Source: Escherichia phage BEU35. From it: a stretch of DNA of 44,569 nucleotides. Position numbers and translations under genes: made by a program. The DNA lies in the sequence record OM632668.1. One strand, 5' to 3'. Below, one piece after another: positions 1 through 24,257 of the stretch (position 1 is its first letter; each line of letters opens with the position of its first letter). The notes under the pieces are model-generated. The model had not been told where the DNA came from, searched no databases, and was given only the letters and a program-made list of their open reading frames with translations.

Positions 1-27
1 ACGGAGCCGCAAGGCGCGTTTCTCGGT

Positions 28-1251
28 ATGCATTGCAAGTTTCCGGCATTCGTAGCTGGCTTCGGTACGGGTAAATCCGAAGTTATGTGCAACTCTGCAC
101 TACTCGACAGCATGGAAGGTGGTAGCGATTCTATCATCGCCATGTATGAGCCGACCTATGACCTGGTGCGCCTCATCCTTGCACCGCGTATGGAAGAAAA
201 GCTCACCGACTGGGGTATCCGGTACAAATACAACAAGTCTGACAACATAATCTATACGTCTTCCGGACAATTTGGGGATTTTGTTCTGCGTACACTTGAT
301 AATCCAGCAAGAATCGTTGGCTACGAATCGTTTCGTGCGAAAATCGACGAGTTGGACACCCTTAACATGGAGCACGCCGAGCACGCGTGGAACAAAGTCA
401 TCGCCCGTAACCGCCAGTTGCCGCGGACATATAAACCTATTACACCGAAACCTGCTAATACCGTTTCCGTGTTCACTACTCCGGAAGGATTCCGTTTCGT
501 ACATGACCGCTGGGTAGTCAAAAAGAATCCAGGCTACGAGATGATTCAGGCGTCCACCCTGTCTAACCCGTTCCTGCCAGAAGATTATGTGCAGTCGTTA
601 CGCGACACATACCCAGGTCAGTTGATTGACGCCTACATCGACGGCAAGTTCGTAAACCTCACGTCCGGAACGGTATACTATGCTTACGACCGCAGGAAAA
701 ACAGCAGTCGCGAAACAATCAATCCCGGCGAGACTCTGTATATTGGGCAGGACTTTAACGTAGGTCACATGGCGAGCACGGTTTACGTGCAACGCGGTAA
801 GGTCTGGCACGCTGTTGCCGAGTTGGTTGATATGTTCGATACGCCTGACGTAGTGCGGGCCATAACTGAGCGATGGAAAAGTAAGGGCCACTATATCGTT
901 ATGTACCCGGACGCCAGCGGCAAAAACCGTAAAAGCAACAACGCCAGTACCTCAGACATCGCTCAGTTACAGCAGGCCGGTTTCGAAGTACGCGCCAAAT
1001 CAACAAACCCGCCGGTTAAAGACCGCGTATCAGCAATGAACAAGGCGCTTGAATCTGGTATGGTCATGATTAATGAGCAGGCATGCCCGGTTACGGCGCG
1101 ATGCCTTGAGCAACAGGCTTACGACAAGAACGGCGAACCAGATAAATCGGGTGGTGTGGACCACCAGAACGACGGGACCACATATCCTATCGCGTATGAA
1201 ATGCCGATTCGCAAACCAGTTATTAATGTCCCGGTGACTTTCGCACTTTAA
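28..1251 (+). CDS. terL: terminase large subunit; frame is open to position 1, so the true 5' end may lie upstream of the window
   Basis: Walker A-like GFGTGKSE near N-terminus, Walker B-like IDELD, Asp-rich C-terminal nuclease-type region; followed 12 nt later by portal-like ORF. Confidence 0.8.
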   Translation: MHCKFPAFVAGFGTGKSEVMCNSALLDSMEGGSDSIIAMYEPTYDLVRLILAPRMEEKLTDWGIRYKYNKSDNIIYTSSGQFGDFVLRTLDNPARIVGYESFRAKIDELDTLNMEHAEHAWNKVIARNRQLPRTYKPITPKPANTVSVFTTPEGFRFVHDRWVVKKNPGYEMIQASTLSNPFLPEDYVQSLRDTYPGQLIDAYIDGKFVNLTSGTVYYAYDRRKNSSRETINPGETLYIGQDFNVGHMASTVYVQRGKVWHAVAELVDMFDTPDVVRAITERWKSKGHYIVMYPDASGKNRKSNNASTSDIAQLQQAGFEVRAKSTNPPVKDRVSAMNKALESGMVMINEQACPVTARCLEQQAYDKNGEPDKSGGVDHQNDGTTYPIAYEMPIRKPVINVPVTFAL

Positions 1252-1263
1252 GAGGATTATTCA

Positions 1264-1818
1264 ATGTTAACTATGAACGGTCAGAATCAGGGTGTTAAGA
1301 CAAAACACCGGGAATGGCTGCACCACTTCGATAAATGGCAGAAGGTGCGCCACGCGCTGGAAGGCGACCTTATCCGCTATCTGCGCAACGTTGGGAAGAA
1401 TGAGCCGGACCCGACCTACGCGGCACAGCGCCAGGAAGAATACGAGAACGGCGCTATCTGTTACAACTTCACCAAGAGAACGCTGGCGGGGATGGTCGGC
1501 AGTGTCATGCGCAAAGACCCCGAGCAGATTATACCGCCTGAACTGGAGTACCTGTTACGTAACGCGGACGGTTCTGGTGTCGGGCTGTGGCAGCACGCAC
1601 AGGATACGCTAATGGAGATTGATTCGGTGGGTCGTGGCGGGTTGCTGGTGGACGCCCCGGAGACAGCCGCGGCAACGGCAGCCGAACAGAACGCGGGGTT
1701 ACTAAACCCGGTCATTGCATTCTACACTGCTGAGAACATCATCAACTGGCGACTGACCCGCATCGGCTCAGTGAACCGTGTGACGATGGTCGTGTTTAAG
1801 CTCCACCTGAGCTTGTGA
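1264..1818 (+). CDS. portal-like protein, N-terminal segment only (184 codons then stop)
   Basis: Canonical position immediately after terL; recalled resemblance to N-terminal region of P22 gp1-type portals (e.g. DSVGRGGLLVDA); too short for a complete portal. Confidence 0.45.
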   Translation: MLTMNGQNQGVKTKHREWLHHFDKWQKVRHALEGDLIRYLRNVGKNEPDPTYAAQRQEEYENGAICYNFTKRTLAGMVGSVMRKDPEQIIPPELEYLLRNADGSGVGLWQHAQDTLMEIDSVGRGGLLVDAPETAAATAAEQNAGLLNPVIAFYTAENIINWRLTRIGSVNRVTMVVFKLHLSL

Positions 1819-1982
1819 AGTATGAACAAGCGACCGCGGCGCGGGCAGGTAACGGAGCGGGACGTAAGTCCTGAGTGTAGTTACGCTGACGCGTTCGGAA
1901 GGGCCATACTCTATTGCTTGTGTAAAAAGTAACTGGTTTACTGAGATTACGCCGTTTCTATGTTTAAATTATAAGGACTAGC

Positions 1983-2010
1983 GCCCCGCTTTAAGGCGGG
2001 GCTTTACTTA
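1983..2010 (+). terminator. GC-rich hairpin (GCCCCGC-tttaag-GCGGGGC) followed by TTTACTT; putative intrinsic terminator
   Basis: Inverted repeat read directly from sequence in the 208-nt non-coding gap after the portal-like ORF. Confidence 0.4.
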
Positions 2011-2026
2011 TCGAGAAAGGGGAAAC

Positions 2027-2413
2027 ATGAATCTTAAAGCAACTGTCGTGGCAGGAGCATGTTTCATCATCCTGGCTTACACACACGGCATTTATCAGTA
2101 CCGCAGCGGCTGGCACGAAGGCCGCGCTAATCTCGTTTCGCAGCAACAGCAGAAAGCACAGGCCGAGTTAGCGAAGAAAACACAACGGCAGCAGCAAGAT
2201 GAATCAAAGGCCGCCGCCGCTGACAACGAAGGCAAGACGAAATCAGAGGTGATTACCCGTGAAGTCGTTAAGTACATTAAAACGCCTGGTCGCAGCGTGT
2301 GCACTTTTGACGATGCTCGCGTCCTGCTCAAGTCCCGCGCCGTCGCCAACGCCAATTCCATCTCCGGATACGACGATGATGCAGCCGCCGTGCAAGCTGG
2401 CGCCACCAAGTAG
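2027..2413 (+). CDS. Rz: Rz-like i-spanin
   Basis: N-terminal hydrophobic segment, Q/A/K-rich coiled-coil-like middle, contains embedded +1-frame lipoprotein ORF. Confidence 0.65.
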   Translation: MNLKATVVAGACFIILAYTHGIYQYRSGWHEGRANLVSQQQQKAQAELAKKTQRQQQDESKAAAADNEGKTKSEVITREVVKYIKTPGRSVCTFDDARVLLKSRAVANANSISGYDDDAAAVQAGATK

Positions 2414-2522
2414 TGACGCGGACGAGGATTTAGCTATCGACGTTCAGAACGCCGAATGCGTACGGCAACTGAGACTGAAAGTGTTCATGTTGCAGGATTA
2501 CGTGAGGAATATTCTGGAATAG
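2259..2522 (+). CDS. Rz1: Rz1-like o-spanin lipoprotein (embedded in Rz in +1 frame, extends past the Rz stop)
   Basis: Signal peptide with lipobox LASC, proline-rich mature region (SPAPSPTPIPSP). Confidence 0.65.
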   Translation: MKSLSTLKRLVAACALLTMLASCSSPAPSPTPIPSPDTTMMQPPCKLAPPSSDADEDLAIDVQNAECVRQLRLKVFMLQDYVRNILE

Positions 2523-2604
2523 TTGCCTTGCATGTTGGAATAATTTATTCTTGACATGTAAATCCGGGTGGCCCGGATTCCAACGTCCAGGGGACATACT
2601 GACT

Positions 2605-3306
2605 ATGAATCGTTTTTTACGTTATCCGTTCCAGGAAGAAGCTGGAGCAGAAGATAAAGCTGGTGGCGGTGACGCTCCTAAAATGTTCACCGCTGAAGAA
2701 GTTCAGGCGCTGATTGAGAAAGAAGTTGCCGGGCTTAAGGCCAATCAGGAAGCATTGCTGGCGGAGAAGAAAGAAGCCGCCCGTAAAGCAAAAGAGGCCG
2801 AAGAAGAACGGCAGCGTGCGCACCAGGAGGCGTTAAAGGCCGCCGGTAAGATGGACGAGTTTGAAAAGACGATTCGTAGCCAGTATGACCCGGTGTTAGC
2901 CGAGAAAGATGGCCGCATCTCCAAAATGGCAGAGCGCATCCTCGGCAGCGAACGTAAAGCGGTGCTAGGCTCTTTCGCGGGTGACTTTATTACCCCGGAA
3001 GCAGTGGACATCCTTGCGCCGTTCGTTAAGACTGAGTTCGAAGGTGATGATGTGGTTACTAAGTTTGTCGGCGCAGACGGTAACGTAATCACGACTGACC
3101 CGGAACAGTTCCGCAAATACCTGCGCGAACACAAAGCGTTTTCGCATTTGATTAAAGCAAATGCAGCTTCCGGCGGCGGGGCTTCCGGTGGCAAAGGCGG
3201 CGGGGCCGCACCAGCGTTTAAAGACATGAGTGAAGCAGAGCGTTTAGCCCTGTATAAATCGAACCCTGCCGAATTTGAACGGCAACTTAAAGCCCTGAGG
3301 AAATAA
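2605..3306 (+). CDS. capsid scaffolding protein (start taken at internal ATG 2605; ORF track opens at TTG 2551)
   Basis: Directly upstream of major capsid gene; charged A/E/K-rich helical composition. Confidence 0.55.
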   Translation: MNRFLRYPFQEEAGAEDKAGGGDAPKMFTAEEVQALIEKEVAGLKANQEALLAEKKEAARKAKEAEEERQRAHQEALKAAGKMDEFEKTIRSQYDPVLAEKDGRISKMAERILGSERKAVLGSFAGDFITPEAVDILAPFVKTEFEGDDVVTKFVGADGNVITTDPEQFRKYLREHKAFSHLIKANAASGGGASGGKGGGAAPAFKDMSEAERLALYKSNPAEFERQLKALRK

Positions 3307-3308
3307 TA

Positions 3309-4358
3309 ATGGCAATTACCACTATCGGCGATATCGTAACTGGCAACATCCCGGTCCTGGCGTCTTATATGACCGAGGACCCGGTAGAAAAAACCGCGTT
3401 CTTCCAGTCTGGTATTCTCACCCCGACCCCATACGCCGCCGAGATTGCCCGCGGCCCGTCCAACGTCGCTAATATTCCTTTCTGGAAAGCGATTGATACC
3501 TCTATCGAGCCGAACTACTCGAACGACGTATACCAGGACATCGCCACCCCGCGTAACGTGCAGACCGGCGAGATGATGGCGCGCGTTGCGTACCTGAACG
3601 AAGGTTTCGGTCAGGCGGATTTGACCGTTGAACTGACCAGCCAGAACCCGCTGCAATCCGTAGCGTCACGTCTGGATAACTTCTGGCAGCGTCAGGCACA
3701 ACGCCGTCTGATTGCTACCGCGCTCGGGCTGTACAATGACAACGTAGCCGCTACCGACGCATACCACGAGCAGAATGACATGGTAATCGACGTGTCTGCT
3801 ACTCTGGGCTTCGATGCGGGCGCGTTCATCGACGCTACCCAGACTATGGGCGATGCTCTGATGGGCAACGGCGGTGAAGTGCTGGGGGCTATCGCGATGC
3901 ATAGCTTCGTTTATGCGCAGGCACGTAAGCAGCAGCTTATCGACTTCATCCGTGACGCGGACAACAACACCATGTTCGCCACCTACCAGGGCTACCGCGT
4001 GATTGTTGACGACAGCATGACCGTAGTCGGCACTGGCCCGACCCGTAAGTTCATCTCCATCATCTTCGGCAACGGCGCTATCGGTTACGGTGAAGGTTCT
4101 CCGTCCAACCCGCTGGAATACGAGCGCGAAGCGTCCCGCGGCAACGGCGGCGGCGTTGAAACCCTGTGGACCCGTAAGACCTGGTTGCTACATCCGTTTG
4201 GTTACAGCTTCACCAGCGCGGTAATCACTGGCAACGGTACCGAGACTATCGCCCGCTCTGCTTCATGGCAGGACCTGGCGAACGCCTCCAACTGGAACCG
4301 TGTGGTTGACCGTAAGCATGTACCGATTGCCTTCCTGGTAACTGGTGTCAGGGCTTAA
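3309..4358 (+). CDS. major capsid protein
   Basis: 349 aa, position after scaffold, followed by strong terminator hairpin; HK97-fold-like MCP size and composition. Confidence 0.8.
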   Translation: MAITTIGDIVTGNIPVLASYMTEDPVEKTAFFQSGILTPTPYAAEIARGPSNVANIPFWKAIDTSIEPNYSNDVYQDIATPRNVQTGEMMARVAYLNEGFGQADLTVELTSQNPLQSVASRLDNFWQRQAQRRLIATALGLYNDNVAATDAYHEQNDMVIDVSATLGFDAGAFIDATQTMGDALMGNGGEVLGAIAMHSFVYAQARKQQLIDFIRDADNNTMFATYQGYRVIVDDSMTVVGTGPTRKFISIIFGNGAIGYGEGSPSNPLEYEREASRGNGGGVETLWTRKTWLLHPFGYSFTSAVITGNGTETIARSASWQDLANASNWNRVVDRKHVPIAFLVTGVRA

Positions 4359-4373
4359 GGTTAAGCTATAATC

Positions 4374-4400
4374 GAGAGGGACTTCGGTCCCTCTTTTCAT
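4374..4400 (+). terminator. intrinsic terminator after major capsid gene
   Basis: AGAGGGA-cttcgg-TCCCTCT stem-loop followed by TTTT. Confidence 0.6.
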
Positions 4401-4419
4401 TTACTAAGAGGATTCCTCA

Positions 4420-4761
4420 ATGGCAGACGTATTGAAACGACGCATCACCGGCGTCTCCGCTGACGCCCCGGGCGCTAAGATTGACATGGCGACTATTTCT
4501 CCTGCGTCTTTCTCTCCCGCGCTGGCGGCTACTACCGCAGTGACCACAGGTGAAACTATGACGCTGACCGTAACCGTAGCTGGCGGTCTGGAGCCGTATT
4601 CTTACCAGTGGTATAAGAATAACAACGCTATCGCCGGGGCTAACGCGGCTACCTACGCTAAAGCGTCAACCACTACCGCTGATTCTGGTACGTATAAAGT
4701 GGTTGTTCACGATGTGTATGGTAATATTATCTCCAGCAGCACTGTAGCAACTGTGTCTTAA
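4420..4761 (+). CDS. Ig-like domain protein, possible head decoration protein
   Basis: Ig-like beta-strand pattern (LTVTVAGG...YQWYKNN...SGTYKVVVHDVYGN); location after capsid gene. Confidence 0.5.
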   Translation: MADVLKRRITGVSADAPGAKIDMATISPASFSPALAATTAVTTGETMTLTVTVAGGLEPYSYQWYKNNNAIAGANAATYAKASTTTADSGTYKVVVHDVYGNIISSSTVATVS

Positions 4762-4797
4762 TACAACGGCCCTTCGGGGCCGTAATAAGGAAAGGTC

Positions 4798-4977
4798 ATG
4801 GCAGATAATTATGTAATCCGCGAAAAGTACACCCACGTTGATATTGTAGACGGTCAGGTGATGCCTGTTCGCGGTGTGGTAGAAGCGGATGAACTGGTTG
4901 CGACTCAACCGGACAACGAAGAAGCGCACAACAACGGCGGTGGTGCTAAGCGTCGTCGCCGTAAATCAGAGGAATAA
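4798..4977 (+). CDS. small hypothetical protein (59 aa, below the ORF-track cutoff)
   Basis: ATG preceded by AAGGAAAGG at 7 nt; fills the gap between flanking genes; basic C-terminus KRRRRK. Confidence 0.4.
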   Translation: MADNYVIREKYTHVDIVDGQVMPVRGVVEADELVATQPDNEEAHNNGGGAKRRRRKSEE

Positions 4978-4980
4978 TTT

Positions 4981-5493
4981 ATGCCGCTAATCGTGGAAGA
5001 CGGGTCGATAGTACCTAACGCCGACAGTTACATTAGTCTGGCTGACGCCCGCGCGTTAGCGGCTAATTACGGTCTTGAGTTACCCGCAGACGATACTGCC
5101 ACCGAAGTAGCCTTGCGCAACGGCGCTACTTATGTCGGGCTTGCAGAACCGCAGATGTGCGGCCGCCGTGTGTCCGCCGAGCAGTCCCTGGCGTACCCCC
5201 GCACCGGCGTTACGTTAAACGGGTTCCCGGTGGTCAACAACGCCATTCCGAAACAGGTGATTCTTGCGCAGGTAATCGCTGCCGCTACATATGGCGAGGG
5301 CACCGAAGTCCGGGCTAACTCAGACGGTCGCGCCGTGCAGACCGAGCGTGTCGAGGGTGCGGTAACAGTGACCTACTTCAACAATGGCAACAGTGGCGCT
5401 ACGACCGCGATTACCGCTGCTGACGACGCTTTACGCCCGTTATTGTGTGGCGGTCTTAACAATGGTTTCTCGTTTAACGTGTACCGGGGTTAA
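4981..5493 (+). CDS. putative head-tail connector/adaptor protein
   Basis: Gene order between capsid and tail genes; ATG 3 nt after the stop of the small ORF. Confidence 0.4.
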   Translation: MPLIVEDGSIVPNADSYISLADARALAANYGLELPADDTATEVALRNGATYVGLAEPQMCGRRVSAEQSLAYPRTGVTLNGFPVVNNAIPKQVILAQVIAAATYGEGTEVRANSDGRAVQTERVEGAVTVTYFNNGNSGATTAITAADDALRPLLCGGLNNGFSFNVYRG

Positions 5494-5495
5494 AA

Positions 5496-6110
5496 ATGGC
5501 GAAGACTAAATCAGAGATATTCACGCTAATCGGTTCCGAGCTACCGGACAACACGACCGGACTTATTACGCCTGCGAAGTTGCGCGGGGTATTAACCCAG
5601 ATGGCTGACTCACCTATTTACGCCACTCCGGGTGTTAAAGAGGTTGAAGTTCTCCGCGCTGCGTCGACAGTAGCGCAAGCGCCTACCGCAGTAGATACGG
5701 CGTTGCAGGTATCGTTCGGCTCTGCTCAGGGTAGTGCATCTGACCCGGTAATGATTAATGCTGCGGGGCTGGTTACATTCAACACCGCGGGTAACTATGC
5801 CGTTCGCATCAAGTTACAGGCCGGTCGCTCCGGCGCTAGCGGAACGTCTATCCTGTTGTCGCGTATCCTCATTAACGGCGCTCAGTACGGCTCACCAGCA
5901 GCTACGAAACTTGTTAGCTTGGAAACCACCATCCCTATTGAATCCCGTGTAGTGATTAACCCAACCGCCGGGCAAACATTCGCCGTTCAGATTATGCGAG
6001 ATAGCGCCGGGACTAACTTCGGAGGCGTATACCCGCAGGTGGCTACTGTAACTGCATGGGGCACGGCACCGTCCGCGCTACTGGTTATTTCGAGACTGGA
6101 GGCTGCCTGA
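5496..6110 (+). CDS. hypothetical structural protein
   Basis: Tightly packed within head-tail joining block. Confidence 0.4.
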   Translation: MAKTKSEIFTLIGSELPDNTTGLITPAKLRGVLTQMADSPIYATPGVKEVEVLRAASTVAQAPTAVDTALQVSFGSAQGSASDPVMINAAGLVTFNTAGNYAVRIKLQAGRSGASGTSILLSRILINGAQYGSPAATKLVSLETTIPIESRVVINPTAGQTFAVQIMRDSAGTNFGGVYPQVATVTAWGTAPSALLVISRLEAA

Positions 6111-6469
6111 TGAGCACTGCTTTCAGTAAACGTATGCAAGGCGTGGGTACACGCCTGCTAACCAAATTCGGCAGCACGGTATCTTTGGTTCGCGCTGGCT
6201 CGAAAGTGTGGGACGAAGTTCTCGGTGAGTACGTCTGGTCTGCGGACGAAGTGTTGCCGTTGAAGGCCGTTCCGGTTCCTGTTAATGCGGGTCTGGTGAA
6301 CGGTACGACGATTCAGGCTGGTGACATGATTGTTAAAGCCGATTACAGCGTCGTTCCTAAGATGGAAGACAAAGTGCAATTCGGCGGCGAGCAATGGTCC
6401 GTCGTAGCCATTGAGAAGAAGGTGGTTAACGATGATGTTGTGGCCTACTTTATTCAGGTGAGAAAATGA
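6110..6469 (+). CDS. putative head-tail joining / head closure protein
   Basis: ATGA start-stop overlap with upstream gene; gene order. Confidence 0.4.
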   Translation: MSTAFSKRMQGVGTRLLTKFGSTVSLVRAGSKVWDEVLGEYVWSADEVLPLKAVPVPVNAGLVNGTTIQAGDMIVKADYSVVPKMEDKVQFGGEQWSVVAIEKKVVNDDVVAYFIQVRK

Positions 6470-6861
6470 GTTTCGCGCTGGACGTCTCTAAGTTCGTGGA
6501 AAAGGCGAAGAAGAACCCTGAGAAGGTGATGCGTCAGGTGTCTATCAAGCTGTTTTCCGCTATTATAAAGGCGAGTCCGGTAGATACTGGTCGGTTTCGC
6601 ATGAACTGGATGGCATCTGGCGGTACTCCTGCTTCCGGGATTACGGATGCTACGGATAAATTAGGAAACACAGCAACCGGAAACGCTACAAGTTTCGTGC
6701 TGAAAGCCACCGACTGGCATGAGTTCACGCTGACAAATAACCTGCCGTATGCACAACGGCTGGAGTATGGCTGGTCGCAACAGGCCCCGCAAGGATTCGT
6801 CAGGACTAACGTGTCCCGCTTCCAGCAACTCATTAACGAAGAAGCTAGCAAGGTGAGATGA
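6466..6861 (+). CDS. HK97 gp10-like neck/tail component
   Basis: Recalled family pattern (DTGRFRMNW ... LEYGWS); 4-nt overlap coupling. Confidence 0.5.
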   Translation: MSFALDVSKFVEKAKKNPEKVMRQVSIKLFSAIIKASPVDTGRFRMNWMASGGTPASGITDATDKLGNTATGNATSFVLKATDWHEFTLTNNLPYAQRLEYGWSQQAPQGFVRTNVSRFQQLINEEASKVR

Positions 6862-7274
6862 TGGGCTACTTTGAGGACTTAACAAAAGCGTTTGATGTGC
6901 CGCTGGTAGCCTTCGGAACCACCAACGGCATCAAGGTAGCGCTTGAAAACATCGACGCGCCGACGTCAACAGATACGCCGTATCTGGCAAGTTACATGTT
7001 GCTGGCGGATACCGAGCAGGCTGACTTATTCTTCACGGAACAACGCGCCGGTGTCTATCAGATAGACATTAACTACGCATCGGTGAAAGGTAGCGCGCCA
7101 ATCAATAAAATGGCAGACTTACTTAACACGGCGTTTAAATCAGGTAAGGCATTTTCGCGTAACGACATCTGCGCCGAGGTTCAATCGGTTAGCCTGGGGC
7201 CGCTGATTGTAGAAAACGGATGGGCCAAACGACCATTGTCAATTAACTTTATTGCATTCACCAAGAGGCTGTGA
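6858..7274 (+). CDS. putative tail completion / tail terminator protein
   Basis: Gene order immediately before the tail tube gene. Confidence 0.4.
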   Translation: MMGYFEDLTKAFDVPLVAFGTTNGIKVALENIDAPTSTDTPYLASYMLLADTEQADLFFTEQRAGVYQIDINYASVKGSAPINKMADLLNTAFKSGKAFSRNDICAEVQSVSLGPLIVENGWAKRPLSINFIAFTKRL

Positions 7275-7276
7275 AT

Positions 7277-8443
7277 ATGGCTACAACTCCTTTTAAGGGC
7301 GCGAATACCGCGCAATTCTATGTGGCGGAAACTACCCCGGGCGTAACACCGGCTAACCCTGTCTGGTCGCCGTTGCGTAACACTGGCGGTGTTCCTGCCG
7401 TAACCCGCGATGCGCTGACTTCCAACGAACTAGACGGCAGCCGTGAAACTACATCCATCCGAACCGGTAACAAACAGGTTAGCGGGGAGTACGCCATCGA
7501 ACTTAGCTCTCGTAGCCAGGATGATTTCCTTGCGGGAGCGATGACTTCTACGTGGCAAGCTGGGGTAGAGATTACTGGCGCCGAAATTACGGTCGCCCCA
7601 GCAGGTAAAACATTCACCCGCGCTGCCGGTAGCTTCATTACTGACAGTGTAGAAGTTGGCGACCTTATTGCGTTCACCGACTTAACCGGCGACAACGCAA
7701 AACCGTTTATCGTGACCGCGGTTTCCGCTCTGGTAGTTACGGGCGCAGGTATTCAGCACACGCTGACAGCAGAGACAGTAACTACTGACGCAAAAACTGG
7801 CGACAAGCTGGAAACCGGTAACGCGTGTAAGACGTTCTCCATCCTGACGTGGTTCAAGGGCCAGTGTGGTAACCTGGACGCGTACATGCTGACCAAAGGT
7901 GTGGAAATCTCTGGCTTTACCGTAGAGCAGGCGGTTAACGCCATGGTCACCGGCAGCTTCCCGTTCATCGGCCTGAGTCAGGAGATTCTTACCGCGCCGC
8001 CGTCTGGCTCTGATTTCTCTCAGGTTACGTTCACCGATGAGCCGTTCTCGTCGGTAGATGTGTCGGTGTTCGATGGCTCCACGCCGTTGCGTTGCGATAC
8101 TCTCACCATCACCAACGACAACGGAGCTTCCGCGCAGTTCGAACTCGGTAACAGTAGCGTGGCGTTCGTCGAACGTGGACGCGCAGCTAACACATTCTCT
8201 ATCTCTGGCAAGCTGTACGACATGGCGATGATTCAGAAGTTTATCAACGAGCAGCAGGTAGAGATTAACTCTATTCTGGCAGGGGTAAACGGGGCTATGT
8301 CTTTCAGTTTGAAACGTGCAGAGCTTACGGCGGTTACACCTGAGATTGGTGGGCCTGAGTCAATCACTCAGTCCATTGAAGGCCAGGCTACCGGCAATCA
8401 GTACCAGTCGTCTATCGTAATTCAACGTATCACCTACGCATAA
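7277..8443 (+). CDS. major tail (tube) protein
   Basis: AAGAGG RBS 7 nt upstream of ATG; 389 aa; followed by strong terminator; position upstream of chaperone/tape measure. Confidence 0.65.
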   Translation: MATTPFKGANTAQFYVAETTPGVTPANPVWSPLRNTGGVPAVTRDALTSNELDGSRETTSIRTGNKQVSGEYAIELSSRSQDDFLAGAMTSTWQAGVEITGAEITVAPAGKTFTRAAGSFITDSVEVGDLIAFTDLTGDNAKPFIVTAVSALVVTGAGIQHTLTAETVTTDAKTGDKLETGNACKTFSILTWFKGQCGNLDAYMLTKGVEISGFTVEQAVNAMVTGSFPFIGLSQEILTAPPSGSDFSQVTFTDEPFSSVDVSVFDGSTPLRCDTLTITNDNGASAQFELGNSSVAFVERGRAANTFSISGKLYDMAMIQKFINEQQVEINSILAGVNGAMSFSLKRAELTAVTPEIGGPESITQSIEGQATGNQYQSSIVIQRITYA

Positions 8444-8448
8444 AACTA

Positions 8449-8471
8449 AGGCCCCTTTCGGGGCCTTTTTC
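8449..8471. terminator. bidirectional-looking intrinsic terminator between convergent genes
   Basis: AGGCCCC-tttc-GGGGCCT stem-loop followed by TTTTT. Confidence 0.6.
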
Positions 8472-9026
8472 TTACAAACCTAATTTTAAAGCAATGTCTA
8501 TAACGTTCGATTTAACGTCACCCGGTATGATGTAGGTGTCGTAATCTTTTACACCACTAACATCGTACAGATAGCCACGGCTATCGCCGATGAACGTATA
8601 GCCGTCACGATGGAGGCGGACGATTCGCACGTCATGCCCCGCGGCGACGATAGGGGCAACTTCACTGGCGAATCCACCGTCGGACACTACAAAAACTTCG
8701 TCGCCGTCAGGCAAGTTTTCAGCAAGATACTTACCGAAATAATCATCGCCGAATACCGGTTTAATGAATTGCTCAGAAATGGCAATCATTAACTGGCGGC
8801 GGGACAACCCATTAAGAAAACCCTCGGGTTTTTCTTTCCGCGCCCGGTCGTCGTAGCCGTCGAGAAATTCGTGGTAAGCATCCTGGCCTAACGCTGCCAA
8901 AGCAATATTGAACATTGGATTCTTGAAACTGGTAGTTCCTTTCGCAAAGCCCATTTCTACCAGCGCCATAGCAAGCGTGTCTTTCCCGCAACCCGCAGGG
9001 CCATTAAGAATAATTACCTTAGCCAT
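8472..9026 (-). CDS. P-loop nucleotide/nucleoside kinase (dNMP-kinase-like)
   Basis: N-terminal MAKVIILNGPAGCGKDT Walker A resembling T4-type dNMP kinase P-loop (SGKDT). Confidence 0.65.
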   Translation of the reverse strand: MAKVIILNGPAGCGKDTLAMALVEMGFAKGTTSFKNPMFNIALAALGQDAYHEFLDGYDDRARKEKPEGFLNGLSRRQLMIAISEQFIKPVFGDDYFGKYLAENLPDGDEVFVVSDGGFASEVAPIVAAGHDVRIVRLHRDGYTFIGDSRGYLYDVSGVKDYDTYIIPGDVKSNVIDIALKLGL

Positions 9027-9514
9027 TATTTATCGCTCCCGTGGGGTTTTAAGTGTGTAGAGTTCCCGTTACAGTCGTATTCGGTAACTGCGTGTGCGGT
9101 TATGCCGAGGTCACGGAAATGCTTTATTACCGCTGGAGAGTCGTCGAACGCACACAAGATTCTTTCCAGTCCGAAAGCACGCAACACCTCTTCTTTAATT
9201 ACGATGTCTTTTCTGTTGTCGTGTTTGCTGCGCATGATTAGCGTGTCAAACCTAACGTTATTCTCTCGTAACCATTCGCGAGTCTCCTCCTCAGCGTCAT
9301 CACTTCGCCCGGTAAGGATAATTATAGTAAGTCCGGAATGCCACAGTACGCTACACAAATGGATATTGTCGTATATCGGAGCGTCATCTTTGCAGGCCAT
9401 GTTAAATGGCTTCCACGCCCACGTTTCTCCGTAGTTATCTTTTGGTAACAGGTGTAAGCGATGGGTACCGTCGGCCAATGTCCCGTCTAAATCGAAAATT
9501 ACAATATCTTTCAT
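9026..9514 (-). CDS. HAD-superfamily phosphatase
   Basis: N-terminal FDLDGTLAD (DxDGT) motif. Confidence 0.65.
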   Translation of the reverse strand: MKDIVIFDLDGTLADGTHRLHLLPKDNYGETWAWKPFNMACKDDAPIYDNIHLCSVLWHSGLTIIILTGRSDDAEEETREWLRENNVRFDTLIMRSKHDNRKDIVIKEEVLRAFGLERILCAFDDSPAVIKHFRDLGITAHAVTEYDCNGNSTHLKPHGSDK

Positions 9515-10641
9515 CCCAGCATCTCCGGTGAAATAGTTAAACGTGCGACCTCGCCATATTCGGCGCTATAAGTAATTACATTTGCACTGCGGCCCGACAT
9601 CCATCCGCCGCGAGAGGCGTAGGCGTCTTTAGCCGCTAAGGTGCGGTGTTGCTCAACAATCATGTTACGGCTTTCTACAATCTTCTGGTGGTGCAGATGG
9701 CCTACGTGGGCGTAGCTGTAAACACTCTCGCCGAACGCTTTACGGAACTTGGCAATCATAACCGGTTCGATAGCGTCGAATCGTGCTTTATGCCCGTGAT
9801 GGAAGAACAGCGTCGTTTTGCCGTGTTGCACCATCTTGTAAACATCCGGCGACGTATCGACGAACACGCGCGGCTCATTGTCGTACAGCGTACTGAACAT
9901 CTCAGCCAACCAAATCATACCCGATTCGTCGTGATTCCCTTGCACGATAAGCAAGCGAACATTTTTATGCTTAACCAACGCCATATCAACGACACGGCGG
10001 ACCATACGAATCATGTAACGGACCAGTTTCTGATAGCGCGTGTCAGCGTCAAGGACATGACCGCTTGCGGGCGTAACGGCATCAAGACTATCGAAGTGCG
10101 CTAAGTCACCAAGAAGATTGATAACCCCAGTACCGGCATCCGGTGCTTTCTGGAATGCTGCATCGAACCAACGAGAGAACAGGTCTTCCGCAATCTTCAT
10201 GTCCCAGTCGTCGCCGCTCTCGTCGGCCCAGGCCAGCATACCGAGATGGAAATCGGATACAGTGTAAAGATTGAGCAGCTTATCGTCCCGTTTGGCACGA
10301 ACGGCTTTAACAGGTGCAACGGGCGTAATCTCCGATTTCATGCCTTCGATCACGGCTTTCATCAATTCAACCTGACGTTCGGCGTCAGTGTCGGTCTTAA
10401 CCCATTGCAACTTAGTGTTGCCGAACTCATCCACCAGTGACGACGTTCCTTTAATCTTATAGCCGTCCGGGACAAGGTGGCTAACATCACGTCCGTGACC
10501 TACACCTTTCTTAGCCAGCTTCGCTTTACGGATACGAATTACGCGGTCTGAGATGCCGTATTTACGGGCGATGTCTACATTCTTCATTCCGGCGTTCAAT
10601 TCTTCCTGTAACTGTTCGTCGGTTATTTTCTTCCGGGCCAT
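9511..10641 (-). CDS. metallophosphoesterase (calcineurin-like) with N-terminal helix-turn-helix
   Basis: Motifs SDFHLG, GDLAHFD, GNHDE, HVGHLHH in canonical order; N-terminal HTH-like segment. Confidence 0.7.
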   Translation of the reverse strand: MARKKITDEQLQEELNAGMKNVDIARKYGISDRVIRIRKAKLAKKGVGHGRDVSHLVPDGYKIKGTSSLVDEFGNTKLQWVKTDTDAERQVELMKAVIEGMKSEITPVAPVKAVRAKRDDKLLNLYTVSDFHLGMLAWADESGDDWDMKIAEDLFSRWFDAAFQKAPDAGTGVINLLGDLAHFDSLDAVTPASGHVLDADTRYQKLVRYMIRMVRRVVDMALVKHKNVRLLIVQGNHDESGMIWLAEMFSTLYDNEPRVFVDTSPDVYKMVQHGKTTLFFHHGHKARFDAIEPVMIAKFRKAFGESVYSYAHVGHLHHQKIVESRNMIVEQHRTLAAKDAYASRGGWMSGRSANVITYSAEYGEVARLTISPEMLG

Positions 10642-10679
10642 GCTTACTTCCTCGTGTTTAGGATTTGTCTTATAGTAGC

Positions 10680-10871
10680 CTACTTCTCTTTCACGTTCGA
10701 GTTACAAGCCCAGATTAAAATGAATACCCACGGCAACAGAACCCACCCGAGAAATAAGTTAGCCATGAATATCGCTAGCTTTGCTTTATGGTTTCGCATA
10801 TGGGCCACAAAAAACGGGATAAAATAAACGCCTACAACAATAATTAAAAAGAACATAGCGATACCGGTCAT
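10680..10871 (-). CDS. small membrane protein (two predicted TM helices); start taken at internal ATG with AGGAG RBS
   Basis: Hydrophobic segments FFLIIVVGVYFIPFFVA and LFLGWVLLPWVFILIWA. Confidence 0.45.
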   Translation of the reverse strand: MTGIAMFFLIIVVGVYFIPFFVAHMRNHKAKLAIFMANLFLGWVLLPWVFILIWACNSNVKEK

Positions 10872-11049
10872 AACATAACTCCTGATTTGAGATAACATCG
10901 TTGGTGTAAGTGAATAGTACGCTATTATATTGGGGAGTGCAAGTAGTGTGCTAGAATAATTTTGCGCCTAGTGTCGCACACGAAAAGCGGGTGGTTCCCG
11001 TCTGGCGCATTTCCTTTAACCAGTAACCTCTTAACCAAAGGATTAAAGA

Positions 11050-11466
11050 ATGAAACTTTCTGATTTTTATTACGAAGCGGAAGCCGAAAAGGGCGCACGT
11101 ATGCCGATACCGCTAAAAGACGGTACTGATTCCGGGGAATGGCTTAATGTTGTTTCTCCTGAGGCGGACGTTGCCGTTAAGGCTATGCGCGCGTTCACCC
11201 TTGCATACCGGGCAGTATTAGGGAAATTAAAACCGCTTCGTGATAAGTGCGAAGAGATGAAAGATTTCTCTGAATACAACCTGAAGATGGAAGACGCGGC
11301 GACGGACCTTAACCGTCAGTTAGCGATTGAATTGGTTAACGGGTGGAGCCTTGACGACGAATTCAATAAAGAGAATCTGAACACACTCCTGACGCAATAT
11401 AAACGACTCGCGGAACTTGTTGTTGTGTTTCATAACGAACAACTGCACCAGCTACAGGAAAAGTAG
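11050..11466 (+). CDS. tail assembly chaperone (G-like)
   Basis: Immediately upstream of tape measure gene; downstream ORF open in the -1 frame. Confidence 0.55.
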   Translation: MKLSDFYYEAEAEKGARMPIPLKDGTDSGEWLNVVSPEADVAVKAMRAFTLAYRAVLGKLKPLRDKCEEMKDFSEYNLKMEDAATDLNRQLAIELVNGWSLDDEFNKENLNTLLTQYKRLAELVVVFHNEQLHQLQEK

Positions 11467-11471
11467 ACGCG

Positions 11472-11831
11472 TTGCTCCAGTTCGCCCGTTGGAACTTCAT
11501 AACCCGCCACAAACGGCGGGAATTTGACAGTATCGCCGATGGGCATAAAGCCGCGCTAATTGCTATGGGGGTTATGCAAGACGCGCCGGATGCAACGCAG
11601 GCCGCTGGGCCGGAATGCCCCCCTGAGCTATTAACCACATTTGAGAAGTACAGGGAAATTAAATTCACCCGCCGAGTGGACGACGACGGCATCAAGATGT
11701 ACCCGCGCGAGCAATTACGATGGTCAGATTTAGTGGCGTACAGCACCGTTTCAGGCCAGAATATAGGGATGTTCGAATCCGACATCATCATGAGCTTAGA
11801 CGCTATTTTCGAGGGTAGAAACGATGGCTGA
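11472..11831 (+). CDS. tail assembly chaperone extension (T-like), probably made as a G-T fusion by -1 frameshift
   Basis: Open in -1 frame from 11436, overlaps the G stop and the tape measure start. Confidence 0.45.
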   Translation: MLQFARWNFITRHKRREFDSIADGHKAALIAMGVMQDAPDATQAAGPECPPELLTTFEKYREIKFTRRVDDDGIKMYPREQLRWSDLVAYSTVSGQNIGMFESDIIMSLDAIFEGRNDG

Positions 11832-14163
11832 TGTAGCTAGTTTAGTAGTAAAAGTAACAGAGCAAGGCGCGAAAGCCACATCAGACCGTCTTGACAACCT
11901 TTCAAAGTCCGCAAAAGTAGCGGGGGCCGCCGTAGCAGGCCTTGCTTCTATCGTAGCGGCTACCGCGTATAAAGCTGCCCAAGAACTGGTTGACTCACAG
12001 CGGCAACTGGACAAGATGTCCGCCAGTTTGAAGACCTTAACAGGAAGTACCCAAGGTGCTAAACAGGCGCTAAGTATCCTGCAAGATTTTGCCCGCGATA
12101 CCCCATACGGACTGGAGCAGGCGGTGGAAGGCTTCCGTAAGCTGGTGGCCCTTGGCCTTACCCCATCCGAGGAGGCGTTGCGGTCCTACGGCAATACCGC
12201 ATCGGCTATGGGCAAGGACCTTAATCAGATGATTGAGGCGGTAGCCGACGCCAGTACGTTTGAGTTCGAACGCCTAAAAGAATTCGGCATCAAAGCCAAG
12301 CAGAACAAAAACGACGTAGAGTTTACATTCCAGGGGACAACAACCGTAGTTAAGAAAAGCGCTGCCGATATTGAGCAGTATTTACTTAATATTGGTAACG
12401 TAAATTTTGCCGGTGCCATGGCGGACCAGGCCAACACCCTTAATGGCGCTATCGCGAGCGCCAGTGACTCATGGTCGCAGCTAAAAATGACGCTTGCCAC
12501 CAGTCTTGATGTTGGCGCACTTGCGGAACCTATCAGGTATATCGATGACTTGATCCAGGAATTAAACGCGTCTGTTGCTTCCGGTGAATTAGCCGCTGAA
12601 ATGCAGATGTGGGGCGACATAGCGTCGGAAGTAGGAAGCGCTATCGAGATGTCATTCGACGCTGCGTTTGGCTTTGTTGGTGATGCCATCAACGGGCTTA
12701 ATGAACTGTGGGATTTCAGCAGCAAGAGTATTACCGATAGCGGAGAACAAACGGCCACCACCATCGCTGAATCCGCCGCCGATGCTCTTGACTTCATCGC
12801 GGAAGAGTTCACCGCGATGGAGAGATTCTTTGAAGATATGGTTAAAGGTGCTCAGGACGCTGGCCGTCTTGTACGCGCCGCTTTTACCCCCGGGGAATCA
12901 GTAGACGTAGCTAAAAATATCAACTTCCAGCTTGGCATGGCTTTGGATACCCAGCGCGATGTCGCCGACGTTACGCGTAAAAGTTTCCGCGAACAGGTAG
13001 AAGCTCAACAGGATATTGTAGCGTTAAAACGCGCGGCGTATGACATCGATAAGGAGTCCGCAAAAGCTGAGGGGTTAAACAAATTTAAGGTAACCGGAAC
13101 CGGCGGCGGTTCTGACGATGACGGGTCAGCCGCAAAAGCCGCTAAGAAAGCAGCGGACGCGTTCGAGCGCCAGAAAAAGGCGGCGGAAGACTTCTACTAT
13201 CAGTCAATCCATCTTAATGATGACGTATTTCAGAAAATAGAAGCTAACCAGGAAGAGCAACTGTCTAAGTTGCAGGATTTTTATAGCAATAAGCTTCTTA
13301 GCGACCAACAGTACGAAAACGCCAAGACGCAGATTATGCTCTCTGCCGAACAGGCCCGCCAGGAAGAACTGGACAAGAAAAGGAAAGAAGCCCAGGAGAA
13401 GCAGCAGAAAGGTGATGATTTCATGGCTCAGATTATGGGCCAGAACGCCGCTGAGCTTGAGCTTCTCGACATCCAGGAACAGCAGAAACTGGCGGTCGCA
13501 GATAAGTACCGTGAGCAAGGGCTTATTAGTGAGAAGCAGTATCAGGCTGCGCTTAATGCCATCAACGAGCAGTACGCCACGAAGCGTGCCGACGCAACGG
13601 CAACGGCCTTCGGTAACATGGCCTCAAACATCGGGTCTGCGTTGGGCGAAGCCTCTGGTGCGTATAAGGCATTCGCTATCGTACAGGCCACCATAGCCAC
13701 TTACACCGCGGCTATCGAGGCGTACAAGTCCACGGCGGCTATCCCTGTAGTTGGCCCATTCCTGGCTCCTGTAGCTGCCGCCGCTGCCGTTGGGGCGGGT
13801 ATGGCGCAGATTTCCGCTATCAGGTCCGCACGTGAACAGGGCGGACAGTTATCCGCGGGGCAGGCTTCAACCATCGCCGAACGCGGTAAACCAGAAGTTA
13901 TCATGCCCGCTGGTGCGTCACGTGTACGCACCGCACAGCAGATGAAAGAAATTATGGGGCAAAACGGGTCTTCTTCCGGACCGTCTAATGTTACTATCGT
14001 AAACAACACGAGTTCTCAAATCGGCAACGTATCCACTGAGCAAGATGATGAAGGCCGTTTGCGTATCATCATCGAGGAGCAAGTGGCTGCCTCTTTGCAG
14101 AACAGTAACAGTAAGATTAGCAAGGCCCGCAAGGCCACAAGAAATGCGCCGGGGTTTAAATAA
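11824..14163 (+). CDS. tail tape measure protein
   Basis: 779 aa, long alpha-helical/coiled-coil composition, Gly/Ala-rich segment, position after G/T. Confidence 0.8.
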   Translation: MADVASLVVKVTEQGAKATSDRLDNLSKSAKVAGAAVAGLASIVAATAYKAAQELVDSQRQLDKMSASLKTLTGSTQGAKQALSILQDFARDTPYGLEQAVEGFRKLVALGLTPSEEALRSYGNTASAMGKDLNQMIEAVADASTFEFERLKEFGIKAKQNKNDVEFTFQGTTTVVKKSAADIEQYLLNIGNVNFAGAMADQANTLNGAIASASDSWSQLKMTLATSLDVGALAEPIRYIDDLIQELNASVASGELAAEMQMWGDIASEVGSAIEMSFDAAFGFVGDAINGLNELWDFSSKSITDSGEQTATTIAESAADALDFIAEEFTAMERFFEDMVKGAQDAGRLVRAAFTPGESVDVAKNINFQLGMALDTQRDVADVTRKSFREQVEAQQDIVALKRAAYDIDKESAKAEGLNKFKVTGTGGGSDDDGSAAKAAKKAADAFERQKKAAEDFYYQSIHLNDDVFQKIEANQEEQLSKLQDFYSNKLLSDQQYENAKTQIMLSAEQARQEELDKKRKEAQEKQQKGDDFMAQIMGQNAAELELLDIQEQQKLAVADKYREQGLISEKQYQAALNAINEQYATKRADATATAFGNMASNIGSALGEASGAYKAFAIVQATIATYTAAIEAYKSTAAIPVVGPFLAPVAAAAAVGAGMAQISAIRSAREQGGQLSAGQASTIAERGKPEVIMPAGASRVRTAQQMKEIMGQNGSSSGPSNVTIVNNTSSQIGNVSTEQDDEGRLRIIIEEQVAASLQNSNSKISKARKATRNAPGFK

Positions 14164-15581
14164 TGAGCGACTTATACTTTCCACGTAGCCTTAAGCCGGT
14201 GGTATCAAAAGGCTACTCAATGACCAGACGTAACAACGTCTGGAGTGTAGATTTAGCCGGTGGCGGAGTGCGTCAAGGCCGTGACACGTATTATGATGTG
14301 TTCCCAATAAGCGTAACCCTGATTACATCCGCAATGGGGCGGCAGGCGTTTCTGTCGTTCCTCGAGAAAGTCGATGGTGGCGCGTCAAGTTTCTGGATGG
14401 CGCACGACTTCGGCATGGGTATTGAGGATTATCAAGTCACCATTACATCCACCGTCGCCGAGTCCACTGAAGACGGGATTAACTGGACAATTACTTTCAC
14501 GGCAACCGCTGAGAAATCACCGTTCCAGGACCTCGAGAACCAGTGTCTGATTAACAATCTGCCAGATTTGTATGGCTGTTATGGTGATTGCCTGGGCAGT
14601 TTCCTGAAAATATACGCGAACTACGAGACTACGTTCCCACGCATCTGGAGTAATGAAGGGCCTGCGGGATACCCGCCAATTAACCTTCTGGCGTCCGCGC
14701 TGGATAGCCGCATTGTTTATGAGGGGCCACAGGTATACCACATCAACCGAAACGGCAATCTTGTGCCATCAGCCGCAAATGAATGGCCCCTTACGTTTAT
14801 TGACGGGGTTGCTGTTGGGCGTGTGCCACCAGAAGGCGGTTCTATTAACTACCAGATAGGCGGGTTAGGTATTGGGTGGGTACATACTTTCAACCGTATA
14901 CCACTAACATCAACAGAGGACAGTGTATATCAAGGCAACCTGGCGGGCACAGTCACCCCAACAGCAGAAAATAACAGCCATTTCTTGTATGCCGAATCGC
15001 TGGGGGATTCAGTAATAGATGTTGGGGAAACATATACTGCTACGGTAATTCTTAAGGCGAATGGTGTCCAGTTTATTCAGGTTTATTGGAACGCAGGTAG
15101 CACAGGGATTTCATCGCACTACTCTAACTTCGACCTTATTAATAAAGCTGTATCAGGCACGGCGACATCGGCTTTCGTAACTGAAATATCTGATGGGTGG
15201 GTTCTATGCTCAACTACCACAACCGCGACAGGAGACGGTTCTGCACTATCCTCCATCGCGGTGGCAAGCGTACCGTCTATGACGTCTACCAGACTCCCGT
15301 CTTACGCATCGGATGGAGCATCTTCTTTTTCAGTTGCGTCCGCTCAGGTTGAAAAAAAACCATTTGCCACGTCGCCGATAGTAACTGACGCATCACCATC
15401 CGCCCGCCCGGCGGCATCGGCAAAAGTAGCAATGAACGGCGCAACAAGCATCGACATTACCTATTCTGACGGCACTGTGGTAAACATTCCAGCGATTGGA
15501 GATTACGCCGCCATCCCACAGGCTGATTCTGCGTGGGGCAGTAAATACATCACTCGTATTGATTTTAATGTGGGCGGTTAA
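14163..15581 (+). CDS. distal tail protein (lambda M-like N-terminus with C-terminal extension)
   Basis: ATGA overlap with tape measure stop; gene order. Confidence 0.5.
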   Translation: MSDLYFPRSLKPVVSKGYSMTRRNNVWSVDLAGGGVRQGRDTYYDVFPISVTLITSAMGRQAFLSFLEKVDGGASSFWMAHDFGMGIEDYQVTITSTVAESTEDGINWTITFTATAEKSPFQDLENQCLINNLPDLYGCYGDCLGSFLKIYANYETTFPRIWSNEGPAGYPPINLLASALDSRIVYEGPQVYHINRNGNLVPSAANEWPLTFIDGVAVGRVPPEGGSINYQIGGLGIGWVHTFNRIPLTSTEDSVYQGNLAGTVTPTAENNSHFLYAESLGDSVIDVGETYTATVILKANGVQFIQVYWNAGSTGISSHYSNFDLINKAVSGTATSAFVTEISDGWVLCSTTTTATGDGSALSSIAVASVPSMTSTRLPSYASDGASSFSVASAQVEKKPFATSPIVTDASPSARPAASAKVAMNGATSIDITYSDGTVVNIPAIGDYAAIPQADSAWGSKYITRIDFNVGG

Positions 15582-15584
15582 CTT

Positions 15585-16100
15585 ATGAGTCAGGAATCAG
15601 TAGAAGCAGCCTACCGCCGTAAGCTGGCCTCAAACCCCGACGGCGAGATTGACTACACGACGCTGGAGATAGTGCATCCGCTTCTTTCGAAGCGGTATTT
15701 ACTTGTGCGCGGGCTACAGGAACTTACGGCAACACTGGAGACAGGCGAAACTATCACATTCGAACCTACCCCGATGGAGGCGTCGGGGGCGGCTAACAAC
15801 AGTGATATGGACCAGACGACAACATTCACTCTGCCGGATATTCTCAATCAACTGGATGATGAGATGGATAAAATCCCGATGAGTAATACCGAGTTACCGA
15901 AGTTCATATTCCGCCGTTACGTCAGCACTGACCTGTCTTACCCGGCTGACGGCCCTGTCGTGTACGAGTTACAGGCCATTAATCAGGAGAAGGGCGAGTT
16001 CTCCGCAGATGTCGGTACACCTATGCTGAACCAACGAAGCACTGGTATACTGATGACACCTAAAGAGATACCGTTATTACGCGGCCTGTTGACCACATGA
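15585..16100 (+). CDS. minor tail protein
   Basis: Gene order in tail tip block. Confidence 0.4.
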   Translation: MSQESVEAAYRRKLASNPDGEIDYTTLEIVHPLLSKRYLLVRGLQELTATLETGETITFEPTPMEASGAANNSDMDQTTTFTLPDILNQLDDEMDKIPMSNTELPKFIFRRYVSTDLSYPADGPVVYELQAINQEKGEFSADVGTPMLNQRSTGILMTPKEIPLLRGLLTT

Positions 16101-16462
16101 ATATTAACGACTACACGGGAATACCTTACGACTTTCGCAAACGCAATTGCTGGCATCACGTTCGCATTGTACGGGCCGATGCCGGGTTAGAAACCCCGGC
16201 GTTCGACGTTACAAGCCCAACGGCGATTAACGAAGCGTTCGACGAAGGCCATCGTGACACGAAGGGGCTTACGAAGATTGATAAGCCTGAAAACTTCTGT
16301 GCGGTGCTTATGGGGTATCGCCGTGGCGGTCGTATCGTGTGGCACGCGGGAGTTTACTTCGACGGGATGGTGAGTCATTGCGAGCTTGCGTCCCGTCAGG
16401 TACGACTTGACCGGCTGGCGGACCTCAGAGACACGTACACGGAGATTGAATTTTGGCGATAA
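16097..16462 (+). CDS. tail assembly protein with NlpC/P60-like Cys-His peptidase motif (lambda K-like)
   Basis: NCWHHVRIV catalytic-Cys-like motif and downstream His; gene order. Confidence 0.5.
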   Translation: MNINDYTGIPYDFRKRNCWHHVRIVRADAGLETPAFDVTSPTAINEAFDEGHRDTKGLTKIDKPENFCAVLMGYRRGGRIVWHAGVYFDGMVSHCELASRQVRLDRLADLRDTYTEIEFWR

Positions 16463-19020: not shown

Positions 19021-19032
19021 AGAGGACTCTAT

Positions 19033-21018: not shown

Positions 21019-21023
21019 AACTA

Positions 21024-21046
21024 AGGCCCCGAAAGGGGCCTTTTCT
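21024..21046 (+). terminator. intrinsic terminator after tailspike gene
   Basis: AGGCCCC-gaaa-GGGGCCT stem-loop followed by TTTTCT. Confidence 0.6.
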
Positions 21047-21184
21047 CTACTCTTCTGATAGCTTCTCCAGTACAAACGCCAGTTGCGCATTAGCGGCGTC
21101 TCTTTGCTGGCGTAATCGTAGAACCTCTTCTTCAAGTTCCTTGATACGTTTTTGCAACGCCGGAATCGGGGCTGTGATGTTCAT
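21047..21184 (-). CDS. small coiled-coil protein (45 aa, below ORF-track cutoff)
   Basis: ATGA overlap with upstream Toprim gene stop; translation MNITAPIPALQKRIKELEEEVLRLRQQRDAANAQLAFVLEKLSEE. Confidence 0.35.
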   Translation of the reverse strand: MNITAPIPALQKRIKELEEEVLRLRQQRDAANAQLAFVLEKLSEE

Positions 21185-24039: not shown

Positions 24040-24227
24040 TTTGCCACCAGAACTAACTCTTTACGCCCGAACGCCGTAACGTTACCGGTTACATCTTCGA
24101 TAACCAGTTTACCGTTCGACTCGACGTACACCGTATCAACGGCAACAGGCCGACGGGTCTTAACGTTGAAAATCATGTCGCCAGGTACGATGTCACGTGC
24201 TGGTTTGCGGTCATATTCGTGTTTCAT
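24036..24227 (-). CDS. small hypothetical protein
   Basis: First gene downstream of a strong sigma70-like promoter. Confidence 0.45.
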   Translation of the reverse strand: MKHEYDRKPARDIVPGDMIFNVKTRRPVAVDTVYVESNGKLVIEDVTGNVTAFGRKELVLVAK

Positions 24228-24257
24228 TTCTCAATTCCTTATATTGTTGGTGTAGGA

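Follow-up and report, generated by a model that had tools for sequence, protein, structure and literature searches.

The portal gene in this phage record lies in two pieces, and the split is very probably an artefact of record assembly in which three blocks of the genome were joined in the wrong order. The window, by which we mean the whole stretch of DNA analysed (44,569 nucleotides from Escherichia phage BEU35, record OM632668.1), reads A-B-C, and comparison with related records points to a native order of A-C-g-B, where g is a short piece missing from the window. We put the probability of this reading at about 0.9. It is likewise highly probable, on the same alignments, that the underlying phage is nearly identical to Escherichia phage BEU33 and has one ordinary 493-aa portal gene right after terL.

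By megablast, the window is a K1G-like Kagunavirus of the Guernseyvirinae. Its closest record is Escherichia phage BEU33 (OM632667), which is flagged UNVERIFIED_ORG and comes from sewage in Russia. Whole-window blastn against BEU33 resolved the window into three blocks separated by two junctions:

1..1796: block A, terL and the N-terminal part of the portal gene; 100% identical to BEU33 1..1796
1796..1797: junction of A and B, blunt and non-native, fusing portal codon 178 to intergenic DNA from upstream of the spanin genes
1797..41330: block B, spanin genes through terS and the first seven terL codons; 99.96 to 100% identical to BEU33 4465..44050
41330..41331: junction of B and C; position 41330 corresponds to the last base of BEU33 (44050)
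41331..44569: block C, C-terminal part of the portal gene, minor head gene with an intein, and front of the Hoc-like gene; corresponds to BEU33 1798..4131

Whereas the window has these blocks in the order A-B-C, all relatives examined have A-C-(333 to 556 bp)-B. The annotated records of fEg-Eco06, KMB36, K1G and fFiEco02 list terS, terL, portal, MuF-like head protein, Hoc-like gene, a variable stretch, spanins, scaffold and major capsid. Piece g (BEU33 4132..4464; fEg-Eco06 11115..11670) was not found anywhere in the window; it comprises the end of the Hoc-like gene, coding for an Ig-like C-terminus, and a short stretch that is intergenic or holds a small gene, and its size is 333 to 556 bp, depending on the relative. 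Block C holds an 897-nt intein, which is absent from BEU33 and present in fEg-Eco06, KMB36 and Ec1-ASingh. The preliminary description had suspected a rearranged, permuted or misjoined packaging module with any breakpoint near 1790-1830, and both points are borne out by the altered block order, with sequence lost, and by the break found at 1796/1797. Simple circular permutation was rejected, because closing the sequence into a circle does not make A-B-C and A-C-B equivalent and the exact 30-mer of the hypothetical circular join from C to A has no match in IMG/VR. Smaller differences from BEU33 include 9 substitutions in 64 nt at 14735..14798, a small mosaic patch in an otherwise identical 29.7-kb block, as well as an indel of 1 nt at 36066 and, near 34563, a difference of 52 nt in length.

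The effect on the portal gene can be followed base by base. Its sequence is distributed over the following features:

1264..1796 (+): portal N-terminal part, codons 1-177 and the first two bases of codon 178; 100% identical to BEU33 1264..1796; runs to the end of block A
1797..1818 (+): read-through tail (third base of an F codon, KLHLSL and stop); equals BEU33 4465..4486 and fEg-Eco06 11671..11692, non-coding there
41331..42279 (+): portal C-terminal part, third base of codon 178 to codon 493 and stop; begins at the start of block C

Starting 12 nt past the terL stop, ORF 1264..1818 (+) encodes 184 aa, made up of portal residues 1-177 and seven extra codons (FKLHLSL and stop). Residues 1-177 share 94% identity with residues 1-177 of the 493-aa fEg-Eco06 portal, and the ORF matches PHROG 145 ('portal protein') at profile positions 2-180 of 493 only (E = 2e-53). 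The FKLHLSL tail has no portal counterpart and is, in all relatives, intergenic DNA upstream of the spanin genes; beyond portal codons 1-177, the reading frame happens to stay open through this DNA as far as its first stop. Frameshifting or recoding at 1796 was discarded, since no portal continuation exists downstream of that position in any frame. The remainder of the gene is found 39.5 kb away, with the whole of block B in between: ORF 41338..42279 is 99% identical to fEg-Eco06 portal residues 181-493 and contains DUF4055 (Pfam, E = 3e-24). When 1264..1796 and 41331..42279 are joined, they give 1482 nt and 493 aa with no gap, overlap or internal stop, the same length as the BEU33 and fEg-Eco06 portals. 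A single ORF of ~493 codons after terL is thus not present in the window as written, where a stop falls at codon 184, but is present once the pieces are joined. The initial reading of the two ORFs as the N- and C-terminal parts of one portal, the first without continuation in any frame, therefore stands, and the two tile that portal as it had supposed. The junction codon of the joined gene is TT/A (Leu), where relatives have TTG (Leu), and portal residues 170-190 read ...VNRVTMVVLREVWEYSEPSAEF....

The C-terminal piece differs from BEU33 at 36 positions between 41331 and 41604 (~13% divergence) with only 3 amino-acid changes, which argues that it belongs to an intact gene under purifying selection and not to a decaying fragment. 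For this patch, the best match among 50,697 phage records is just 93% identical, which places the donor lineage outside that collection. An off-by-one slip behind the 'A' at 41331 was also considered and set aside, a synonymous TTG>TTA change opening the 36-SNP patch being simpler.

Homologous proteins likewise read through the break. A word-indexed search of the 184-aa ORF against 5.8 billion proteins gave 18 matches, 14 of which lie on contigs that do not reach 2.5 kb, so that a contig end may have truncated the gene. The contigs with P0004 and P0012 measure 3.7 and 9.8 kb; P0006, P0016 and P0018 come from 44-kb contigs and probably carry frameshifts. All homologues long enough to reach the position (P0003, P0006, P0008, P0009 and P0018) read '...MVVLRE.(Y/W/F)E...' across the break: P0003 with ...VVMVVLRETYEL, P0006 with ...VVMVVLREQFEYNETDDEFVTKVGEQYRVLD... 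and P0008 with ...MVVLREPYEY, while P0009 runs on into DUF4055. The search returned fragmentary portal homologues only and no full-length 493-aa Kagunavirus portals, although the phage DNA collection has them, so the short match lengths are not evidence for a short protein family. In the gene-position index, the 184-aa product had no exact match.

The portal is one of three genes broken by a literal reading of the record. Its packaging and head neighbours are arranged as follows:

1..1251 (+): terL, codons 8-423 and stop; Pfam Terminase_6N/6C; collinear with fEg-Eco06 terL 6059..7330 from base 6080
40811..41320 (+): terS, small terminase; collinear with fEg-Eco06 terS 5560..6069
41310..41330 (+): first seven terL codons (GTG AAC GTT AAT ATC ACG GCA); same sequence as fEg-Eco06 6059..6079 and as the final bases of the BEU33 record
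42316..44286 (+): gene for a Mu F-like minor head protein, interrupted in frame by an intein (43009..43905); Pfam Phage_Mu_F and a weak Intein_splicing match
44289..44569 (+): Hoc-like head decoration gene, first 93 codons and 2 nt; corresponds to fEg-Eco06 10834..11114, part of a gene of 459 nt

The record starts 21 nt inside terL, whose ORF was called in the window at 28..1251, directly before ORF 1264..1818; the terL start fragment at 41310 reaches a TGA after 8 codons. As written, terL is off its start codon, the portal lies in two pieces, and the Hoc-like gene breaks off mid-codon at the last base of the window, which is also the end of block C. A siphovirus without a portal and without a terL start cannot propagate. 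Reordering restores genes without any base edits: A followed by C yields the portal, and B followed by A (41310..41330, then 1..1251) yields terL. We counted the mid-codon end of block C at the window end, together with the missing g, in favour of an artefact.

Several observations concern the Hoc-like gene and its surroundings in related records. Seven nucleotides within it (ACGCCCG; window 44338..44344) are present in the window and fEg-Eco06 and absent from BEU33, where their lack would frameshift the gene. A motif of ~36 nt with 89% identity occurs at 10907..10942 and, inverted, at 34600..34635, and also in g at BEU33 4340..4375; in g of both BEU33 and fEg-Eco06 it lies just downstream of a bidirectional terminator hairpin that follows the Hoc-like gene. 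By appearance it is a terminator-like element present in dispersed copies.

At the start of block B, the truncated portal ORF is followed by these features:

1822..1932 (+): small conserved ORF, 36 aa; equals the fEg-Eco06 CDS 11696..11806, 'hypothetical protein g026'
1983..2002 (+): terminator-like hairpin, 8-bp stem with 7 GC pairs, then a T-rich tail
2027..2413 (+): i-spanin gene of the spanin pair, annotated in K1G (4663..5049) and in fEg-Eco06
2259..2522 (+): overlapping o-spanin gene of the pair, annotated in K1G (4895..5158) and in fEg-Eco06

The stretch 1819..2026, which separates ORF 1264..1818 from the spanin genes, had been described as a 208-nt non-coding gap with a hairpin. Its length, the hairpin and the spanins beyond it are as described; it also holds the conserved 36-codon ORF, for which no PHROG match was found. 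Since the hairpin is shared with BEU33 (4651..4670), it is a normal feature of that intergenic region. The o-spanin read from 2259, as in K1G 4895..5158, has a signal peptide and the lipobox LASC; the fEg-Eco06 annotation (48 aa) begins past the lipobox and is probably too short. Further downstream, an ORF of 303 codons at 2745..3656 (-) runs antisense to the scaffold and major capsid genes and is probably spurious. A promoter at the start of block B (TTGACT, 17 nt, TAAGCT in BEU33 and fEg-Eco06) was not called by the consensus scan, and we make no claim for it.

The two junctions themselves are foreign to all collections searched. After position 1796, BEU33 continues with GCGTGAAG..., whereas the window from 1797 onward follows BEU33 from 4465 onward. 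None of the 180 matching records among 50,697 phage records spans the junction of A and B, and its exact 30-mer has no match in IMG/VR, JGI metagenome contigs or GTDB genomes. The junction of B and C is spanned by none of 64 matching records in the same phage collection, and its exact 30-mer has no match in IMG/VR. To the base, this second junction coincides with the 'base 1' origin of the K1G, fFiEco02 and BEU33 records, in which the portal starts at 1264. In K1G, this origin is the ATG annotated for ORF1; in the terL allele of the window it is an ACG codon 21 nt into the gene. It is therefore a coordinate set by bookkeeping and not by biology. Real recombination would have no reason to fall on it, and a breakpoint placed on a database convention points to an in-silico origin. 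Repeats or microhomology that might have mediated a real recombination or a k-mer mis-join were looked for; none longer than 11 nt was found between any of the junction flanks, and the window has no terminal overlap; the blunt junctions thus bear no signature of recombination. The 'CG' that the starts of block A and of native block C share at the junction of B and C is at chance level. Both the window and BEU33 were evidently rotated by alignment to K1G-type records, whose differing terL allele opens with ATG at base 1.

How such a misordered record could have arisen is suggested by the position of the first break. Block A stops one base before the first of the 36 clustered differences, and, apart from that, blocks A and B hardly differ from BEU33. 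A break at the first variant base looks like a contig break where two near-identical genotypes share one sample. Assembly would then have given a backbone contig of B and A and a separate contig C, breaking at the divergence from the co-occurring relative. The backbone contig would have been taken as circular and rotated to the K1G 'base 1', creating the false join of A and B; contig C would have been appended at the end, creating the false join of B and C, and the short g contig dropped. At about 0.3 to 0.6 kb, a g contig would fall under typical length cut-offs. We infer this sequence of circularising, rotating and appending as the most economical scenario, a reconstruction from the joins in the record. 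Block C is contiguous across stretches that are 100% identical to BEU33 (41605..43007 and 43905..44569), and a simple mixed-sample assembly-graph bubble does not explain this contiguity.

The BEU33 record contains a block displacement of its own. A 171-bp piece lies there at 34180..34350, 4.4 kb away from its position in the window, where the same 171 bp lie within an intact 70-aa ORF (35878..36090) and are contiguous with 210 bp homologous to fEg-Eco06 g067. Judged from this alignment, the displacement is a cut-and-paste anomaly in that record, and it lends independent support to block displacement in records from this source. The ORF concerned is one of two paralogous small Cys-rich genes, 35878..36090 (+) and 30664..30891 (-), of 70 and 75 aa and ~5 kb apart, which share ~85% nucleotide identity over 171 bp; it is the central 171 bp of the first that are displaced in BEU33, leaving the gene broken.

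Among the alternatives to a misordered record, a rearrangement that is physically real in a defective genome or minority variant fares best, and we consider it unlikely. A 2.67-kb deletion producing A-B, with a helper supplying C, would account for the join of A to B, which compared with BEU33 amounts to a clean deletion of 1797..4464; deletion variants can occur in phage lysates and cocktails, and the source seems to involve closely related co-occurring genotypes. A variant with such a deletion, however, would be left with one third of the portal and with neither the minor head protein nor the Hoc-like gene, so that it could not propagate alone, and the deletion leaves unexplained why block C is attached exactly at the conventional origin and ends mid-codon. 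The absence of the junction from every other record or contig searched (phage records, IMG/VR, JGI metagenomes and GTDB) also speaks against it.

Far less probable is that the order A-B-C is real in virion DNA and that the portal is built from two polypeptides of ~177 and ~313 aa encoded by a naturally split gene. If true, terL would start at an internal codon, and a split portal would be seen for the first time in a tailed phage. In its favour, each piece is an open reading frame, that in block C has an in-frame GTG at 41338, and split phage genes exist, such as the 'fractured genes' (PMC2677866). Yet the halves are 39.5 kb apart instead of adjacent, and the only GAGG (41334..41337) abuts the GTG at zero spacing, both being portal codons 180-181, which leaves the C-terminal piece without a usable start. 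The last seven codons of the N-terminal piece are intergenic and foreign to the portal, terL would have no start codon and the Hoc-like gene no C-terminus; the arrangement occurs in 0 of ~180 relatives, and one breakpoint sits on an arbitrary database coordinate. As for the possibility that 1264..1818 and 41338..42279 are two different complete proteins, the first an independent family of 184 aa, it is refuted: many short homologues (106-315 aa) did appear in the protein search, but their lengths are heterogeneous, none carries the FKLHLSL tail, those that are long enough read through the break, and the 493-position PHROG 145 profile is matched at 2-180 only.

The intein in block C was examined alongside the misordered blocks. 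The MuF-like gene is annotated as 'minor head protein with inserted intein' in fEg-Eco06 and KMB36. Within 43009..43905, the window, fEg-Eco06, KMB36 and Ec1-ASingh differ from one another by 1-4 of 897 nt, whereas the flanking exteins in these four phages differ by ~10%, mostly at third codon positions. This near-invariance against diverged exteins points to recent horizontal spread (homing) and thus to a mobile element; BEU33, otherwise near-identical to the window, lacks the 897-nt intein. The intein endonuclease was rejected as a cause of the rearrangement, because the breakpoints (BEU33 1796/1797, 4131/4132 and 4464/4465) are not at the insertion site (BEU33 3473/3474). The intein contains a second gene on the opposite strand:

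43078..43845 (-): antisense gene in the intein, 255-codon ORF encoding two helix-turn-helix units and a Vsr-like (EDxHD-type) homing endonuclease

Before its ATG there are an extended -10 box (TGTATAAT) and a GAGAGGG Shine-Dalgarno sequence. Three diverged homologues of the antisense protein (53%, 45% and 26% amino-acid identity) were found on metagenome contigs, with both strands open end to end, and the sense and antisense codons of the intein are in exact register. When the long genes of this genome were scanned in 3765 windows of 255 codons, not one had an open in-register antisense frame. In the intein middle of the three closer sequences, antisense amino-acid identity is 0.38-0.44 versus 0.25-0.28 for the sense frame, and substitutions peak at the antisense wobble position. 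All four antisense proteins match Pfam HTH_7 and MTES_1575, and a protein search with the sense-strand intein gave two partial matches only. The most diverged homologue, on a Logan SRR29973902 contig, occupies a different MuF-like site (...HPNC before and RCAFIP after the intein) from that in the window (...RTSTT before and CRARDG after), so the element family is found at at least two insertion sites. A 2025 report (bioRxiv 10.1101/2025.01.02.630785) describes actinobacteriophages whose minor capsid proteins carry inteins with a Vsr-like endonuclease encoded antisense. The Kagunavirus intein was noted in 2024 (PMC11162368), in a paper whose intein passages do not mention the antisense gene. 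By its predicted protein content, the intein with its antisense Vsr-like gene is a new coliphage member of this recently described kind.

For users of the record, the portal gene itself is ordinary and of low biological interest, and the practical value of these results lies in the warning they give. Automatic annotation would report the portal and the head-decoration gene as truncated and terL as lacking a start, and the record is short of about 0.3 to 0.6 kb of genome. Before any use in taxonomy, comparative genomics or therapeutic-phage safety assessment, it should be re-assembled or its blocks put in the order A-C-(gap)-B, and caution is due with records from this source, as a similar block displacement is seen in BEU33.

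Set beside known systems, the joined gene has the same sequence, the same start (1264) and the same length as the Kagunavirus/Guernseyvirinae portal (PHROG 145; fEg-Eco06 XDT02076.1, K1G ORF2 ADA82245.1), which is unsplit in other Kagunavirus records, unlike the two-piece copy in the window. With the fractured genes (PMC2677866) the window has in common that one ancestral gene appears as two ORFs and that an intein with a homing endonuclease gene lies in the same module. In the fractured-gene passages of that work (Dassa et al, 2009), the halves are adjacent and collinear, have their own start and stop signals, and usually have a split intein or an endonuclease gene between them, whereas in the window both junctions are free of mobile elements, the C-terminal half lacks a start signal and the arrangement does not recur in relatives. 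There is also a resemblance to contig-order and scaffolding errors in circularly permuted phage records, with which the window shares blunt non-native joins, a breakpoint at the origin, a block that ends mid-gene at the record end, lost sequence and several essential genes broken.
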